Part shown: positions 52,909 to 63,048 of the stretch, one piece after another
Position numbering within the stretch: position 1 is the stretch's first letter
Layout of the letters: the number at the start of each line of letters is the position of its first letter
NCBI GenBank assembly: GCA_020633295.1
Contig: JACKDW010000001.1
Location: 1,149,828 to 1,213,827, forward strand
Direction of reading: 5' to 3'
DNA length: 64,000 nucleotides
DNA from: Myxococcales bacterium
GTDB taxonomy: Bacteria > Myxococcota_A > Polyangia > Nannocystales > Nannocystaceae
Translations under genes and position numbers: made by a program
Notes under the pieces: model-generated
What the model was told of the DNA's origin: nothing
What the model saw: the letters and a program-made list of their open reading frames with translations, nothing else
Databases searched by the model: none

Positions 52909-53466
52909 TCACACCGCGGCGTCGTGCTGCGGACGGCCCCGCGCGAGCTTGCGCTGCAGGCTGCGCCGATGCATGCCGAGGCGCCGCGCCGCCTCGGAGA
53001 TGTTGCCCTGGCAGTCGGTCAGGACTTTCTGCAGGTGCTCCCACTCGAGCTCGTCGAGCGGCTTGGCGGCCGTCGGCGCGGGGAGGTCGATCAGCGAGGC
53101 CTGCTTGCGCGAGAACGCCGCGAGGATCTCGTCGGGCTCGGCGGGCTTCGTCAGGTAGTGCACGGCGCCGAGCTTGATCGCCTCGACGGCGCTGGCGATG
53201 CTGCCGTAGCCGGTCAGCACGACGATCTCGATCTCCGGGTCGAGCTGCTTGAGCGCGGCGACCAGCTCGAGGCCGTTGCGGCCGGGCATGCGCATGTCGA
53301 CGACGGCGCGCGCGGGGTTCCAGGCGCGCGCCTCGGAGAGCGCCTCGTCGTAGCCGTGGGCGATCACGACGGCGAAGCCGCGGCGACGGAACGACCCAGC
53401 GAGCGCCCCGCAGAACGGCTTGTCGTCATCGACGACCAGAACGTATTCGCGCGTCTCGGCACCCAT
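52909..53466 (-). CDS. regA: Response regulator of the RegA/PrrA/ActR type (REC + Fis-type HTH)
   Basis: LVVDDD...D...TGYGS...K REC. C-terminal GNISEAARRLGMHRRSLQRKL nearly identical to the canonical RegA HTH. ATG at 53464-53466. Confidence 0.7.
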   Translation of the reverse strand: MGAETREYVLVVDDDKPFCGALAGSFRRRGFAVVIAHGYDEALSEARAWNPARAVVDMRMPGRNGLELVAALKQLDPEIEIVVLTGYGSIASAVEAIKLGAVHYLTKPAEPDEILAAFSRKQASLIDLPAPTAAKPLDELEWEHLQKVLTDCQGNISEAARRLGMHRRSLQRKLARGRPQHDAAV

Positions 53467-53530
53467 GGCGTTCCCCCTGCAGTTGTGAACGAGCCCTCTT
53501 CCGGTGATCGTCTCGGCAGTCTTCGAATGT

Positions 53531-53602
53531 GTCGGCGAGGTTGTCGGCGAGGTTGTCAGCGAAGTTGTCAGCGAAGTTGTCCGCGAAGCCGTCCGCGACG
53601 AC
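53531..53602. repeat. 12-bp tandem repeat x6 between regB and regA
   Basis: gtcggcgaggtt x2, gtcagcgaagtt x2, gtccgcgaagcc, gtccgcgacgac. Confidence 0.85.
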
Positions 53603-53740
53603 GCGTCGCCGCGTGAGAAAAGCGTGCAGCTGATCTTACGTAAGGGCAAGGGGAGTGAGCCGACTCTCGCGACCGGACGTCGCACCCACGCCGCCGCCCC
53701 GCGTAATCGGCAGCGCGCGCCCGCGGTTCGGGGTTTCTCG

Positions 53741-55051
53741 CTACACGCCGGCGAGCGTCGCGTGCTGCGGCCGGACCGGGAAGCGCACGCGCGCCTTCGT
53801 GCCCCGGTCCGGGCTCGACTCGAGCTCGATCGAGCCGCCGAGCTGGCGCAGGTGCGCGCGCGCGAGGTACAGGCCCAGGCCCATCCCGCGGCCCTCCTCC
53901 TTGGTCGAGTAGAAGGGGTTGAAGGCGCGCGCGAGCGCCTGCTCGTCCATGCCCACGCCGTCGTCGACGACCTCGACGAAGACCTCCCCGTCGAGGACGT
54001 CGAAGCGCGCCACGACCTCGCGCGCGCCCGGGTGGTTGCGACAGGCCGCCGCCGCGTTCGAGACCAGCTCGCGGAGGATCTGGCCGATGACCTCACGCGG
54101 CTGCCGGACCTCGTCGGGCGGTCGCACCGCGGGCGTGAACACGACGCGCACGCGGACCCCGACCGCGGCCTCCACCAGCTCGTCCTCGAGGTCGCGCAGG
54201 GACCACGCGTCGACCTCGCGCCCGAGCTGCGGCAGCCGCAGCTCGGGCGAGGCCATCTGGTGGATGATGTGCTTGCAGCGGCGGACCTGCTGCTTGATGG
54301 TCGTGATCGACTCCTCGCGCTCGTCCTCGCCCATGTAGTCGAGATCGCCGACGAGCGCGCTGATCGTGCCCAGCGGCGAGCCCAGCTCGTGGGCGGCGCC
54401 GGCGGCCAGGGTCCCGAGCGCCGCGAGGTTGCGATCCTGCAGCGCCTCCTCGCGCAGGCGCGCGAGCTCGCCCCGCTGGCGCGCGAGCGACATCGCGATG
54501 CGGTGCACGAAGTAGGTCATGAAGGTGCCGGAGATCGCGAACGCGACCCACATGCCGCGGATGTGCGCCGAGAGGTGCTCGCCGTGCCCGGCCACGGCGC
54601 CGACGCCCGGCGAGACCAGGAACAGCGCGGCGAAGCCGGCGAGGCAGTAGAGCGCGAGCGTCCACATCCAGCGCGGCGAGATCTGGGTCGCCAGCGTGAT
54701 GGGCACGAAGAACATCGTCGTGAACGGGTTGGACACCCCGCCCGAGAGGGCCAGCAGCGCCGTCAGGGCGGTGGCGTCGATCATCAGGTGCGCGCCGGCG
54801 ATGTTCGGCGTCGCCTTGCCCGGCTTCAGGATCCAGCGCTGGGTCGCGAGGTTGAGCGCGACGAGCACGATCATCACCGCGCCGGTGCCTCGCGGTTCGG
54901 GCGGCGGCGGGAACCAGTTGATGATCCGGACCCAGGTCGGCGGGTGCAGCAGCTGCACCGTCCAGCCCAGCGCGATCAGGCCGAGCAGCACCCAGCGCGC
55001 GAACACGAAGGTCCGCAGCGCGATGTTGGCCGAAGACCGGGCGGCGGGCAC
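53741..55051 (-). CDS. regB: Membrane sensor histidine kinase of the RegB/PrrB type
   Basis: Conserved quinone-site heptapeptide GGVSNPF in TM region. H-box AHELGSPLG. Redox Cys region RRCKHII. N, G1, G2 boxes. Confidence 0.7.
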   Translation of the reverse strand: MPAARSSANIALRTFVFARWVLLGLIALGWTVQLLHPPTWVRIINWFPPPPEPRGTGAVMIVLVALNLATQRWILKPGKATPNIAGAHLMIDATALTALLALSGGVSNPFTTMFFVPITLATQISPRWMWTLALYCLAGFAALFLVSPGVGAVAGHGEHLSAHIRGMWVAFAISGTFMTYFVHRIAMSLARQRGELARLREEALQDRNLAALGTLAAGAAHELGSPLGTISALVGDLDYMGEDEREESITTIKQQVRRCKHIIHQMASPELRLPQLGREVDAWSLRDLEDELVEAAVGVRVRVVFTPAVRPPDEVRQPREVIGQILRELVSNAAAACRNHPGAREVVARFDVLDGEVFVEVVDDGVGMDEQALARAFNPFYSTKEEGRGMGLGLYLARAHLRQLGGSIELESSPDRGTKARVRFPVRPQHATLAGV

Positions 55052-55115: not shown

Positions 55116-55367
55116 TCAGTTCGTGTCCGTGTCGGACTCGGTGTGCGCGTGCTCGTGGCCGTCGGTGTCGGTCTCGGTCGACTCGCCGCTGTCGGTCTCG
55201 TGCCCGTGCTCCTCCTGGCACGTGCCCTGACCGTCGTGGACGTCGCAGATGAGCCCCTCCGCGCAGTCCGAGTCCTTCTCGCAGACCTTGCCGACGCCGT
55301 CGTCGCAGGCCGCAGCCAAGGAGACGCCGAGGAGCAGACCGAGTACCGCCGTGGTGACGCGTCGCAT
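55116..55367 (-). CDS. Small lipoprotein with Cys-rich core and His/Asp/Glu/Thr-rich C-terminus (putative metal-binding)
   Basis: Lipobox GVSLAACDDG. CEKDSDCAEGLICD...GTCQ. EEHGHETD...DGHEHAHTESD. ATG at 55365-55367. Confidence 0.5.
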   Translation of the reverse strand: MRRVTTAVLGLLLGVSLAAACDDGVGKVCEKDSDCAEGLICDVHDGQGTCQEEHGHETDSGESTETDTDGHEHAHTESDTDTN

Positions 55368-55483
55368 GCCGGCACGGTATCGAGCGAGCGTCGCGGCGCG
55401 CAAGGGGGCTTCCCCTCGGCGCGGCTGCGACACGACGTCGCAACCCGACGCCCGGTCCCCGGGGCGCCGCAGCTCCAGGCGCT

Positions 55484-55858
55484 GTGATATGCAGCCTGGG
55501 CGTGGAGTTGTGTGTGACTACAACGTTCGAGGTGGCGCGGCGCGTCGTCGCGCTCGGGCTGCTCGCGCTGAGCGTCAGCGGCGGGCTGCTCGGCTGCATC
55601 GCCACGCTCGCGCCCAACGTCCGCGCCCGCGATCACCACGCGTCGCTCGAGCCGCGCAGCACCTGGGATGACTGCAGCGCCTGCCACGAGCTCGAGAGCG
55701 TCATGGCGCACCGGCTCGAGCACATGAGCCCGCGGGCGCGCGCCGGCGCCGAGGCCCAGGCCATGCGCGGCGGCGGGGCGCCGCTCGTGCGCGACTGGAT
55801 GGCCGAGGAGCCGCGCGGCTGCCTCGACTGCCACCGCCTGCGGGGGGGCGCGCCATGA
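55484..55858 (+). CDS. Small diheme c-type cytochrome lipoprotein
   Basis: Lipobox GGLLGCIA. Two CxxCH heme-binding motifs (CSACH, CLDCH). Confidence 0.55.
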   Translation: MICSLGVELCVTTTFEVARRVVALGLLALSVSGGLLGCIATLAPNVRARDHHASLEPRSTWDDCSACHELESVMAHRLEHMSPRARAGAEAQAMRGGGAPLVRDWMAEEPRGCLDCHRLRGGAP

Positions 55859-56775
55859 CTCGAGCGCCAGGTCGAGCGAGACGTCGAGCGCGCGCCGGCC
55901 TGCTGACCGCGGCGCTGGTCGCCGGGCTGGGCCTGACGCCCGCGCCCGCGCGCGCCCACCACACGCCGGGGCACAGCGCGTCGGAGGGCGTGCGCACGAT
56001 CAACAGCCTCGGCGGCACCGGCGGGCGGGCGCGCACGCGGCTGCTGCTGCTCAACGAGTACAGCTACACGGGGCAGGGGCTCAACCCGGGGCACTCCTAC
56101 ATCCTCTCGCTCTACGGCGAGTACGCGCCGATCCCCGACGTCTCGGTCGCCGTCCAGGCGCCGCTGCAGGTCGCGGCGTTCAAGGAGAACGACTACGCGC
56201 CGCTGGTCGGCTACGGCAACACCCGCGTCGCGCTGCGCGTGACCCCGCACGCGCGCAAGCTGATCCACCGCGTGCTCAGCACGGGCTTCAACCTCTCGAT
56301 CCCGACGCGCACGATCACGTTCCCGGTCGACCCCGGGCGCATCTGGGTGGTCACGCCCTACGTGATGTTCACGCGCACGTACACGCAGACCTACTACCAG
56401 GTGATCGCCCTCCTGCCCGTCGAGTCGCGACCCGCGGGCGTGGCCGTCGACCTCTCGCTCGGCGGGCAGGTCGGCACCCGCCTGCTCGACAGCAAGCTCT
56501 CGGCGGGCTTCGGCGCGCTCGTCGACGTCCGGCTCGCCAACTGGAAGGCCACGGTCGACGGCGGCCTCGAGTTCACGCCCGAGACCCGGCCCGGCGAGGG
56601 CCTGCCGGGCTCGTCGGACGATCGACCGATCGGCGCGACGCGGATCATCGGGACCATGAACACGGCCTACAACTTCGCGCGCTGGGGCTCGCTGATCGCC
56701 AGCCTGCAGCTCCCGCTGACGCCGAGGCACGACTTCACGGTCGGCGGCAGCCTCGGCCTCCAGGTGTTCTTCTAG
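55855..56775 (+). CDS. Outer-membrane beta-barrel protein, translationally coupled (ATGA) to the cytochrome gene
   Basis: Signal peptide ending PARAHH. Alternating amphipathic strands. C-terminal LGLQVFF with terminal Phe typical of OMP beta-signal. Confidence 0.55.
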   Translation: MTRAPGRARRRARAGLLTAALVAGLGLTPAPARAHHTPGHSASEGVRTINSLGGTGGRARTRLLLLNEYSYTGQGLNPGHSYILSLYGEYAPIPDVSVAVQAPLQVAAFKENDYAPLVGYGNTRVALRVTPHARKLIHRVLSTGFNLSIPTRTITFPVDPGRIWVVTPYVMFTRTYTQTYYQVIALLPVESRPAGVAVDLSLGGQVGTRLLDSKLSAGFGALVDVRLANWKATVDGGLEFTPETRPGEGLPGSSDDRPIGATRIIGTMNTAYNFARWGSLIASLQLPLTPRHDFTVGGSLGLQVFF

Positions 56776-56890: not shown

Positions 56891-58123
56891 CTAGAAGCGC
56901 CCGCGCAGCGTGAGCCCGCCCGGGGACAGCCCGGCGCGCAGCGTCGCCTGGGGCTTGCGGTCGCGCGTCCACACGAGCGCGGCGACGCCGAGGGTCACGA
57001 GCGCCGCGCCGCCCGCGAGCAGCAGCGCGCCGCCGATGTCGGTGTTGTAGCGCTTCTGGCAGTCGAACACGTCCATGCCCGTCGCGCCGTCGCAGCTCGC
57101 CCGCTGGTAGTCGCCGTCGACCGCCAGCAGCGCCGCGCCGGCGCCGAGCCCGAGCGCGCCGAGCCCGAGCGACGCCCACGCGAGCCCGCGGCGACGCTTG
57201 AACTCCTTCGGGCGCTCGAGCTGGACCTCGATCGTGTCGCGCACGCCCGGCGCCGTCACGAGCTCGCGCTCCTCGTCCTTGTAGTTATCCATGCTGACGC
57301 GCAGCACGTGCTTGCCGCGATCGACCTCGACCTCCACGGGCGACAGCCCGATCAGCTCGCCGTCGATGTACACGCGCGCGCCGGGCGGCTTCGTCGTCAG
57401 CGTCAGCTGGCCGGGGCGCGTCTCGAGCGAGTCGATGAGCAGCGCGGCGTTGGTCGCCAGCGACTCGCCGACCTCCGGCAGCCCGCAGGTGTCGCACTGG
57501 TCCGCCGCGTCCGTGATCACCTCGCCGTTGTCGAGCGAGTAGAGCTTGAGCGTGATCGCGTAGTCGCGATCGTCCGCCTCCACGCGCGTGCGCAGGATGT
57601 GGGTCGCGCCCGTCGCCGCGCGCAGGCGCTGGTAGCAGGTCGGATCCTGGCACACGGAGCCGACCGCGACCGAGACGCGCGTCGGATCGATCACGCGCAC
57701 CTTGCTGCGCCCGAGGCCCTCGAGCAGCGCGTCGGTCAGCGGCTCGACGAGGAACTGCGGGTCCGAGCCCGTGATCTCGAGCGGGTGGACCGCGACGGTG
57801 AACGACGCGAGCGCCGAGTCGTCGTCGATCGAGCTCGTGGCTGAAGATTCAGGTGGCGCTGCGCCGGGCGTCGCGCAGCCGGGCCGGGCGTCGCGCCCGG
57901 CGCGGGCGTCGCGACCGACGCAGGCGCCGGCGCGGGCGCAGGGGCTCTGCTGCGCGGCGGTCGTCGCCGCAGGCGCCGGCGTCTCAGGTGCCGCGGCCGC
58001 AGGCGTCCAGGTGCCGCGGGCGCCGCGACGCCGCTGACGGGCGCGAGCGCGAGGCATAGCGATATCGTCGTCGCGAGCGCGCGGGCGAGCGCGCGACGGG
58101 GCGCGGGCGATGGTGGCGGACAT
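56891..58123 (-). CDS. PEGA-domain protein with C-terminal transmembrane segment
   Basis: PEGA motif LTTKPPGARVYIDGELIGLSPVEVEVDRGKHVLRVS. C-terminal TM GALLLAGGAALVTLGVAALVW. Start uncertain. Confidence 0.55.
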   Translation of the reverse strand: MSATIARAPSRARPRARDDDIAMPRARARQRRRGARGTWTPAAAAPETPAPAATTAAQQSPCARAGACVGRDARAGRDARPGCATPGAAPPESSATSSIDDDSALASFTVAVHPLEITGSDPQFLVEPLTDALLEGLGRSKVRVIDPTRVSVAVGSVCQDPTCYQRLRAATGATHILRTRVEADDRDYAITLKLYSLDNGEVITDAADQCDTCGLPEVGESLATNAALLIDSLETRPGQLTLTTKPPGARVYIDGELIGLSPVEVEVDRGKHVLRVSMDNYKDEERELVTAPGVRDTIEVQLERPKEFKRRRGLAWASLGLGALGLGAGAALLAVDGDYQRASCDGATGMDVFDCQKRYNTDIGGALLLAGGAALVTLGVAALVWTRDRKPQATLRAGLSPGGLTLRGRF

Positions 58124-58202
58124 CCTGTCATCGGCTCTCTCTCCGGCTCGCTGCTCCGTCGGTCCTCCGACGCTCCTCCGTCGTCCCCGCGGCTCCTCCC
58201 GG

Positions 58203-61361
<3,159 letters not shown>

Positions 61362-61608
61362 TACCGCCGCGCAATCGCACTCACAAGAATCGCGTGTTTG
61401 CTCGCGCGGCGCAACGAGCGTTGACGCCCGCCGCGCGCCCGGTGAGCGCTCGAAAAGAGCTCCTCGCCCCGCGCCGGCGGCTCGCTCGCGGCGCCCTCGT
61501 TGTCACGCCGCGCGCGTCGCCGACGCGGTCCACGAGCAGACGCGATCGCGCGCGCCGTCGCGCTCACGCGAGCGGGGATCTGCCCGGAGCGCGCGCGTCG
61601 CGTACAGC

Positions 61609-62573
61609 TCATGGCAACGGGTTCGCGCAGCGAAAGCCGACGTCGCTCGGCGCGTCGGCGGGCGCACCGTTGCCGCGGCTCGCCGCGCGCAGCAGCGACG
61701 GGCTGGTGCTGACGAAGCTCCCGCCGCGGAGCGAGCGGCGCTCGATCGGCGACGCGTCCGGGCCCGGCGGGTCGACGAGCGGCCCGCTCGCGTAGTAGTC
61801 GGCGTCGTACCAGTCGCGCACCCACTCCTTCACGTTTCCTGACATGTCCAAAACGCCATATGGAGACTGACCGCTCGGGCGCGAGCCGACCGGCTCGCTC
61901 ATGTCGGCGCCGCAGCCCGCGATGCTGCTGACCGCGTGCTCGCAGCTCGGCGCGGCGTTGCCCCAGGGGAACTCCGCGCCGCTCTCGCCGCGCGCCGCTT
62001 TCTCCCACTCCGCCTCCGTCGGCAGGCGCATCCCCGCCCACGCGCAGTAGCTCGCGGCGCCCTGCCACGCGACGCAGTTGATCGGGTGCTCCTCGCGCCC
62101 AGGCTTGCCCCAGTTGCACAGCGCGTCCGCGCCGCTCGGCGCCTGGCACTTGCCCGCGTCGACGCAGACGGCGTACGCCGACACGGTGACCTCGAGCGTG
62201 TGGATCTCGAAGCCGCCCAGCCAGACGCTCTCGACCGGCATCTCGTCGCTGGCGTCGCTGGACCCGCGGATAAACATGCCTTCAGGGACATATGTGACCA
62301 GGAGCCCGTCGCCGCTCCCGGTCCCGCCGGTGTCGCTGTCGCCGTCCCCGTCCCCGTCTCCGTCCCCGTCCCCGTCCCCGTCGCCCGTCGGGCCCGAGCT
62401 CGTGGTCTGCGTGCCGGGCTCGGTCGCGTCGGTCGCGTTCGCGCCGCTCGTCCCCGGCTCGCCGGTCACCTCGTCGGTGGTCGGGCCCCCGAGCCCCACC
62501 GTGTAGGCGGCGTTGTCCTCGAGACAGGCGGCGACGAGCCCCGCGAGCAGGACTGGGAGGAGCTTGCGCGTCA
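61609..62573 (-). CDS. FGE-sulfatase (SUMF1/formylglycine-generating-enzyme-like) domain lipoprotein with (GD)n repeat
   Basis: Lipobox GLVAACLE. (GD)7. FGE core RLPTEAEWEKAARG, PWGN, DMSGNVKEWVRDWY, RGGSF. Confidence 0.7.
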
Positions 62574-62640
62574 CCGCGGCATCATACCGCGAAGCGCCGC
62601 AGCGCCCGATCTCGCGGCGCACGCTCGCGACGCGCGTGGC

Positions 62641-63048
62641 ATGCTCACCGTGATGACGACCCGCGCGCACGAGCCCGCGCGTGAGCGCGCGTTCCTGGAT
62701 CGCCTGCGCGCGCTCATCCTCCGCTATCGCGGCGACGACCCCGACGACCCCGACGACGCGAGCTCGCGCCGCGACCCCGCGCTCGCGCGCGCGCTCGCCG
62801 AGATGCTCGAGACGCTGCGTCGCCCGCCCGACGATCCCGACGCGCCGCCCGGCGAGAGCCTCTCGCGCGCGGACGTGTACCGTATTCGCATCAGCAAGTT
62901 CGTCGCGCGCGAGCTGCCCCCAGGGTCATTCGCCGATCGAGCGCTGCGCCGCGCGGTCCGCCAGGAGGCGCGCGCGCTGGCGGAGCTGCTGCTCGGCGCG
63001 GCGACGCCCGACAGCCCCTACCTCGACCGCGCGCGCGAGCGCGGCTGA
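62641..63048 (+). CDS. Hypothetical small protein (135 aa)
   Basis: Protein-like composition (RALILRYRGDDPDDPDD...VYRIRISKFVARELPP). Not antisense to a better gene. No motif. Confidence 0.35.
   Translation: MLTVMTTRAHEPARERAFLDRLRALILRYRGDDPDDPDDASSRRDPALARALAEMLETLRRPPDDPDAPPGESLSRADVYRIRISKFVARELPPGSFADRALRRAVRQEARALAELLLGAATPDSPYLDRARERG

Follow-up and report, generated by a model that had tools for sequence, protein, structure and literature searches.

A receptor-type Hanks kinase gene and the gene of a predicted envelope partner form a conserved pair in Nannocystaceae/Polyangia, with an FGE-fold lipoprotein gene as neighbour

Bacterial sensor kinases and envelope enzymes can work together with accessory proteins of the envelope, as exemplified by YycH and YycI with WalK, ExoR with ExoS, RcsF, LpoB with PBP1B, and PelC with the TPR protein PelB. 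Hanks-type Ser/Thr kinases of the PknB/PrkC/StkP class combine a cytoplasmic catalytic domain with a single transmembrane (TM) helix and an extracytoplasmic sensor composed of PASTA repeats. Here we describe a receptor-type Hanks kinase and the protein encoded beside it—termed the partner in the following—in a 64,000-nt stretch of DNA from a Myxococcales bacterium (the window; GenBank assembly GCA_020633295.1, contig JACKDW010000001.1, positions 1,149,828-1,213,827; GC content ~73%). The window kinase shares the catalytic domain, the single TM helix and the extracytoplasmic sensor with the PknB class, whereas its sensor consists of a TPR-like domain, a Pro-rich spacer and a TPR domain instead of PASTA repeats. 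The pair resembles the accessory-protein systems in that the partner is likewise predicted to be exported or anchored, is encoded beside a membrane signalling enzyme and would make its contact in the periplasm. It differs from them in that a histidine kinase is replaced by a Hanks kinase and in that the helical hairpin, Cys loop and terminal Phe of the partner are unmatched in Pfam/NCBIfam. No sequence-level homology of the partner to accessories of the YycH/YycI, ExoR, RcsF, LpoB or PelC type was found. By analogy, the pair may thus work like sensor kinases with accessory envelope proteins while being a member of none of those families. A kinome survey has grouped Myxococcota kinases with a C-terminal TPR, predicted to serve protein interaction, as 'Myxo1' (bioRxiv 10.1101/2025.01.12.632604); the C-terminal TM/TPR architecture of the window kinase agrees with this group, to which it is likened by architecture only. 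Literature searches on PEGA or FGE-sulfatase domains in combination with kinases turned up no dedicated exported partner.

The kinase and partner genes are preceded by the gene of a lipoprotein with the fold of formylglycine-generating enzyme (FGE), and all three lie head-to-tail on the minus strand. A sequence-only reading of the region had assigned their domains, which coding-type GC content at third codon positions (GC3) and Pfam matches confirm, and had proposed that they constitute one envelope module transcribed as an operon. The module of three genes is unsupported: the FGE gene has no conserved synteny, and only the kinase and the PEGA-domain partner gene are kept together. We therefore read the region, with a probability of roughly 0.6, as a conserved pair of envelope-signalling genes beside an unrelated gene for an FGE-fold protein, the TPR ectodomain of the kinase engaging the partner.

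The pairing was followed across relatives by a genome scan with the kinase-specific ectodomain, which yielded 13 true loci belonging to Nannocystis, Paraliomyxa, Nannocystaceae and Polyangia, and by a partner-anchored metagenome scan and contig look-ups for partner homologs, which supplied further loci; hidden Markov models (HMMs) of the partner family and of the ectodomain were run on all open reading frames (ORFs) of all loci. Kinase and partner genes lie within 2.6 kb of each other in 32 of 39 unique informative loci from Nannocystaceae/Polyangia genomes and metagenomes, and all four relative orientations occur: kinase then partner on the same strand (7 loci), partner then kinase on the same strand (2), divergent (5), convergent and adjacent (15), and convergent with one or two genes between (3). 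Where a kinase-anchored genome locus has both flanks, the partner gene adjoins the kinase without exception (11/11), divergently in L008-L011, convergently in L012 and L018, upstream on the same strand in L014, and downstream with an ATGA stop/start overlap in L013, L015, L016 and L017. The same holds for all five sampled divergent representatives of the partner family, which adjoin an orthologous kinase, and for 11 unique partner-anchored metagenome loci that also carry the kinase, nine of them with adjacent genes and two with genes 2.3-2.6 kb apart. No other window gene is common to the kinase-partner loci, and the genes beside the partner in L047-L050, L001, L002 and L005 show no homology to each other or to window ORFs. 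Since the other flanking genes are unrelated, the conserved unit comprises exactly two genes, and the envelope pair of kinase and PEGA protein proposed from the sequence is upheld.

Several observations weigh against this interpretation. Seven partner-anchored loci (L002, L025, L027, L028, L029, L034, L043) have no kinase ortholog in their sequenced flanks, which shows that linkage in cis can be dispensed with. Convergent and divergent pairs, which are not co-transcribed, are in the majority, and the loci, having been sampled by sequence patterns, are biased to particular clades. For the same reason of orientation, the term operon is too strong for kinase and partner. For a putative operon of all three genes there is the common strand and, between kinase and partner, a gap of 71 nt in the window, 4 nt in the relative L007 and the ATGA overlaps in four relatives; the prevalence of convergent and divergent pairs elsewhere and a 247-nt spacer with a conserved block between the FGE and kinase genes may weigh against it. 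A scan of the region for sigma-70 consensus promoters and for terminators gave no hits, which is uninformative at 73% GC.

Some features of the surroundings are confined to individual loci. The locus of cultured Paraliomyxa miuraensis SMH-27-4 encodes a partner variant lacking the PEGA domain, with the ATGA overlap (L013, 11131-12009). Within one clade (L001, L003-L006, L012, L018, L021-L045) the partner gene lies downstream of ruvX-yceG (mltG), and Big_7 and ApbE genes precede the kinase. A link to ruvX-mltG was considered and dropped, this context being confined to that clade and not found in the window. Genes for extracytoplasmic function (ECF) sigma factors stand beside the pair in two divergent loci (L047, 9186-9842; L048, 4164-4811) and may hint at what the pathway controls.

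The kinase conforms to the description given by the sequence-only reading, namely a Hanks-type enzyme of 1052 residues with an acidic repeat N-terminus, one TM helix and an extracytoplasmic TPR region, on the evidence of Pfam matches, motifs and hydropathy. Its catalytic motifs are intact—GEGGMG for GxGxxG, AIK for VAIK, HRDFKPDN for HRDxKxxN, DFG and SPE—so the enzyme looks active. The charges on either side of the one TM helix agree with a receptor-type kinase that spans the membrane with its N-terminus inside. The N-terminal 360 residues are predicted to be disordered, acidic, of low complexity and cytoplasmic. They include a DDAN/DDAY repeat (window 60727-60826) that is missing from the 84%-similar relative L007 and is represented by a run of N in the contig L051, a metagenome-assembled sequence from the same population; the repeat is a recent expansion prone to mis-assembly. 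On the periplasmic side, the membrane-proximal TPR-like domain is the family-specific ectodomain by which orthologs were recognized, its HMM matching in 35+ loci. It is followed by the Pro-rich spacer, whose length differs among orthologs, and by a distal three-repeat TPR domain with TPR_16/TPR_2 matches over residues 942-1030 in Pfam. This C-terminal domain is highly conserved among orthologs, and outside the catalytic domain no part of the kinase is as conserved as the periplasmic TPR domains. Neither the N-terminal region nor the proximal ectodomain gave anything meaningful in Pfam/NCBIfam at E up to 10. No match was returned for the exact kinase protein sequence, and word-index homolog searches with the ectodomain returned nothing or one fragment, low-complexity and TM words swamping the candidates. 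Screening with PADLOC models of anti-phage defence produced only generic kinase-domain matches, and none for the FGE-fold and partner proteins.

The partner gene is interrupted in the window. As first read, it was an ORF of 443 codons (56891-58222) whose product has no signal peptide, but the conserved start is the ATG at 58131 in another frame, from which the signal peptide MTGCPPPSPAPRRALARALATTISLCLALAPVSGVAAP is read. In L007 the same MTGC start is found 4 nt past the kinase stop and the alternative frame is closed, and a signal peptide is present on every homolog of the protein. The window was compared with contigs from the same population (98.8-99.8% identical, found by exact-protein look-up), three of which cover the site of the insertion listed in Table 1. 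Without bases 57876-57877, a single ORF of 412 codons, signal peptide included, opens at ATG 58131 and closes with the stop codon 56891-56893; L055 also lacks base 57940 and has a natural Ala/Pro/Thr linker over the stretch that is seemingly out of frame in the window. The 443-aa ORF is hence partly a frameshift product, its first ~115 residues being an artefact, and an annotation of the ORF as read would be wrong. An assembly error is favoured over a real lesion, given the intact codons downstream and the clustering of the indels in a repeat-rich linker of ~80% GC. That the gene is a genuine pseudogene in this strain, the insertion being real, is a rather unlikely alternative. It would be in keeping with the difference between the window and three independent assemblies at these two bases and with plausible slippage in a repeat-rich region, yet GC3 stays at 0.94-1.0 over the 320 downstream codons, which hardly differ from the intact copies, and several indels clustered in an Ala/Pro linker of this GC content are typical of consensus errors. 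Programmed frameshifting was also considered and was dropped, near-identical assemblies simply lacking the extra bases.

The mature partner is predicted to consist of a globular N-domain, a PEGA sandwich and a C-terminal membrane-associated module. In an AlphaFold2 (AF2) model with a mean predicted local distance difference test score (pLDDT) of 75.6, in which ORF residue = model residue + 120, the N-domain has Foldseek matches in the PDB to TolB-N, FlgT, LpoB, PelC, GNA1162 and CsgG, with E down to 6e-8 and, for this predicted model as query, a probability of 1.0 against TolB, FlgT, LpoB, PelC and GNA1162. Judged by the model, the N-domain has a fold of periplasmic envelope proteins, which does not imply a common function; LpoB and PelC, whose fold it resembles, belong to the accessories introduced above, and PelC works with a TPR protein. 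The PEGA part, for which Foldseek also returned carboxypeptidase regulatory domains, bears out the PEGA assignment made from the sequence, whereas the single C-terminal TM anchor proposed along with it does not hold: two hydrophobic helices are predicted at model residues 222-247 and 275-299, besides a weakly predicted C-terminal hairpin. The one PEGA sandwich does not define the family, unlike in PEGA domain proteins (PF08308) as such, as variants encoded beside the kinases most similar to that of the window (L013, L015, L016, L017) lack PEGA and keep all else. Conservation across 138 members is 99-100% at six Cys—four in the N-domain, arranged as two pairs, and two in the inter-helix loop, which carries a C..VDADGDC-type motif—and the chain ends in Phe, mostly as GRF, in 125/138. 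Nothing meaningful was found in Pfam/NCBIfam at E up to 10 for the N-domain and the C-terminal module. A first impression that the family is rare (12 word-index hits) was overturned by an exhaustive HMM search with 2149 hits at E<=1e-30; the best 150 of these 2149 contain ~100 full-length clusters of 300-400 aa at 50% identity, and the named members are all annotated 'hypothetical protein'. Signal peptides on the homologs and the predicted N-domain fold mark the partner as an exported envelope protein.

In the mechanism that we propose, the kinase would be an envelope receptor whose periplasmic TPR ectodomain binds the globular domains of the partner or its invariant C-terminal tail, and changes in this contact, reporting the state of the envelope, would activate or silence the kinase domain in the cytoplasm. 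The invariant ...GRF tail, if periplasmic, would be an attractive TPR ligand. The topology of the partner counts against this account: with two helices after a signal peptide, the Cys loop should face the cytoplasm and the basic flanks the periplasm, contradicting the positive-inside rule, and the charges around the helices in the window are +3, -3 and +5. Unless the partner is an exception to the rule, its hairpin does not lie in the inner membrane and could instead be located in the outer membrane or mediate oligomerization. A bolder version, which we consider a long shot, has the Gly-rich hairpin span the outer membrane, with the basic flanks in the periplasm, the disulfide and Ca-binding-like loop at the surface and the terminal Phe acting as a signal like that of outer-membrane proteins; the TonB-like spacer of the kinase would then carry the distal TPR across the periplasm to the partner, and the pair would form a trans-envelope link through which a Ser/Thr kinase is informed directly of the state of the outer membrane or the cell surface.

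Insertion of the hairpin into the inner membrane after export would place the loop in the cytoplasm near the kinase domain, and the partner might then serve the kinase chiefly as a substrate or docking target instead of being a periplasmic ligand of its TPR domain; phosphorylation would take place on the cytoplasmic side, in the loop between the helices or in the basic tail. A Thr is usual in the loop (..WDT../..YNT..) and a Ser in the tail, and the conserved adjacency of kinase and partner counts equally for this possibility. It is unlikely all the same: neither the loop Thr nor the tail Ser is invariant, the invariant loop Cys pair and the DxDxDG-like acidic motif look extracytoplasmic, and the strong conservation of the periplasmic TPR domains would be left unexplained.

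The FGE-fold lipoprotein was the third component of the module proposed by the sequence-only reading, in which it served as extracytoplasmic sensor or modifier. Its long ORF spans 61609-62670, and the 5' part of this ORF overlaps a conserved plus-strand gene; the functional start GTG 62574 gives a lipoprotein-type signal, VTRKLLPVLLAGLVAAC, and the PF03781 match (164 bits vs a cut-off of 23.3; FGE-sulfatase fold over residues 128-349) agrees with the secreted FGE/SUMF1-fold lipoprotein read from the sequence. Among solved structures, FGEs of bacteria and human come closest (E=1e-24 to 1e-21), human SUMF1 (2aft) being one of them. Whether the catalytic Cys pair is retained had been proposed as a check, and alignment to FGE structures shows that it is not. 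At the position of CHDSYC or CHESYC in the solved enzymes (6muj, 2q17, 5nxl, 6s07; 'LCHDSYC' in FGE structures) the window protein has 'VSTSP--S', its 'RGGSFVSTSP--SLLR' aligning with 'RGGSYLCHDSYCNRYR' of the Streptomyces FGE, and the L007 ortholog, with 'RGGSYYSTTATLLR', also lacks both Cys. The protein thus shares its fold with SUMF1/FGE and lacks the Cys pair of the enzyme; on this alignment it cannot generate formylglycine by the known mechanism, and an annotation as formylglycine-generating enzyme would be wrong. Other identities were rejected on the curated NCBIfam cut-offs: GldK/PorK, likewise a lipoprotein of FGE fold (62 vs 350 bits), PvdO (52 vs 500), EgtB, whose DinB domain is not found in the window protein (60 vs 360), and SenA (61 vs 420). 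The linker tract read as (GD)7 counts eight units in the window; 6 extra bases at 4669-4675 of L051 make it (GD)9 in the same population, an in-frame repeat polymorphism. Between nth and the FGE gene, and divergent from the latter, lies a small gene of ~135 codons (62641-63048, plus strand, GC3 ~0.9) that has a 60% identical counterpart at the corresponding position of L007, with ~66 nt left for a divergent promoter region; its product has no Pfam match and nothing meaningful in Pfam/NCBIfam at E up to 10.

A three-part envelope module would be in line with the common direction of the three genes, with the collinearity of nth, the small ORF, FGE, kinase and partner in L007 and L051, and with the fusion of FGE-sulfatase domains to some bacterial kinases of the 'Proteo1' family (bioRxiv 10.1101/2025.01.12.632604). 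We nevertheless consider such a module quite improbable. The FGE gene adjoins the kinase only in these two loci and, wherever else kinase and partner occur together (30 loci), is missing up to a distance of 10 kb from the kinase, so that the conserved synteny whose lack had been named as refuting the idea does not exist; moreover, the catalytic Cys pair is missing. In addition, the last 85 nt before the kinase ATG are 87% identical to L007, as opposed to 48% in the remainder of the 247-nt spacer, and this promoter-like block separates the FGE gene from the kinase. The block, for which there is no Rfam match and no significant RNA fold, is a candidate promoter/operator region of the kinase itself and, putatively, of the kinase-partner unit; Rfam and RNA folding gave nothing significant in the gene-end region either. 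FGE-sulfatase and kinase genes are, finally, both very abundant in myxobacteria, as illustrated by 69 and 360 such genes, respectively, in Minicystis rosea (PMC8436480), so an adjacency by chance is unremarkable and even expected. The FGE gene is a lineage-specific neighbour that probably lies outside the kinase transcription unit.

That kinase and partner are neighbours by inherited gene order only, with no functional coupling, is very improbable: all loci come from one part of Myxococcota and the partner also travels with ruvX-yceG in one clade, yet the adjacency outlasts at least four rearrangements and a full turnover of the other flanking genes, and four loci have overlaps of the translational-coupling type.

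Myxobacteria contain hundreds of eukaryote-like kinases, almost none with a known input. The pair offers a concrete candidate input partner for one widespread kinase family, the partner family being large and the two genes translationally coupled in some relatives, and with Paraliomyxa miuraensis (L013) it has a cultured host. The C-terminal module of the partner is of interest in itself, as it is unannotated and has a topology at odds with the positive-inside rule.

Table 1. Features of the kinase, partner and FGE-fold lipoprotein genes (window coordinates)
Feature	Position	Strand	Evidence or remark
FGE-sulfatase-fold lipoprotein gene	61609..62574	-	321 aa from GTG 62574; PF03781 E=5e-48; lipobox LVAAC
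(GD)8 tract in lipoprotein linker, length varies among assemblies	62338..62385	-	repeat scan, translation
Site of the FGE catalytic, copper-binding CxxxxC pair, missing here (RGGSFVSTSPSLLR)	61687..61728	-	alignment to 6muj, 2q17, 5nxl
Conserved non-coding block directly upstream of kinase ATG	61362..61446	-	74/85 bases identical to L007
Receptor-type Hanks Ser/Thr kinase gene, 1052 aa	58203..61361	-	domain matches; start ATG conserved in L007
DDAN/DDAY acidic tandem repeat in N-terminal region	60729..60812	-	Tandem Repeats Finder (TRF), period 12 nt, 8.3 copies
Kinase catalytic domain, residues 366-653, all catalytic motifs	59403..60266	-	Pfam Pkinase (PF00069) E=6e-36
Single TM helix, residues 674-696	59274..59342	-	hydropathy 2.43; RR on N-terminal side, acidic on C-terminal side
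Membrane-proximal periplasmic TPR-like domain (predicted), ~170 aa	58752..59264	-	profile matches consensus TPR structures, E=3.8e-11
Pro/Glu-rich spacer, PEPEPEP-type (PEPEPEPTPPPEP...), TonB-like	58578..58736	-	weak NCBIfam TonB match, residues 881-929
C-terminal periplasmic TPR domain (predicted), residues 938-1040	58242..58550	-	Pfam TPR_16, TPR_2, TPR_19; ortholog comparison
Partner gene, true start ATG 58131 (signal peptide), frame interrupted in window	56891..58131	-	start conserved in L007
2-nt insertion causing frameshift	57876..57877		bases missing from L054, L055, L056
Partner N-domain, alpha/beta, TolB-N/LpoB/PelC/FlgT-like, four invariant Cys	57419..57805	-	AF2 pLDDT ~90; Foldseek
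PEGA beta-sandwich	57221..57412	-	Pfam PF08308 E=7e-13, 48.8 bits vs cut-off 20.8; AF2 strands
Two Gly-rich hydrophobic helices flanking acidic loop with two invariant Cys	56966..57199	-	AF2, hydropathy, charges, conservation
Basic tail ending ...LTLRGRF-COOH	56894..56965	-	terminal Phe 125/138 members

The genes that follow the pair in the window were inspected as well. A two-component pair on the minus strand (52909-55051) comprises a PilS-like histidine kinase with six TM helices (HisKA, HATPase_c) and a putative response regulator with a Fis-type helix-turn-helix, the latter read by eye only; it is unrelated to the kinase-partner finding. The minus-strand gene at 55116-55433 encodes a small Cys-rich lipoprotein of 105 aa with an N-terminal hydrophobic segment and a His/Asp/Thr/Glu-rich tail (HETDSGESTETDTDGHEHAHTESDTDTN), which has no family match and is possibly metal-binding. 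Near the start of this gene, window 55396-55530 differs from positions 36-170 of the otherwise 99% identical contig L054 by dense substitutions and small indels, a cluster that reflects either hypervariability of this stretch or faulty assembly. Convergent with the partner gene and 115 nt from it, a plus-strand gene (55855-56775) encodes a 306-aa protein that has no Pfam or NCBIfam match; it carries a signal peptide, ends in ...LGLQVFF like an outer-membrane beta-barrel, and is found in identical copies in four metagenome assemblies.

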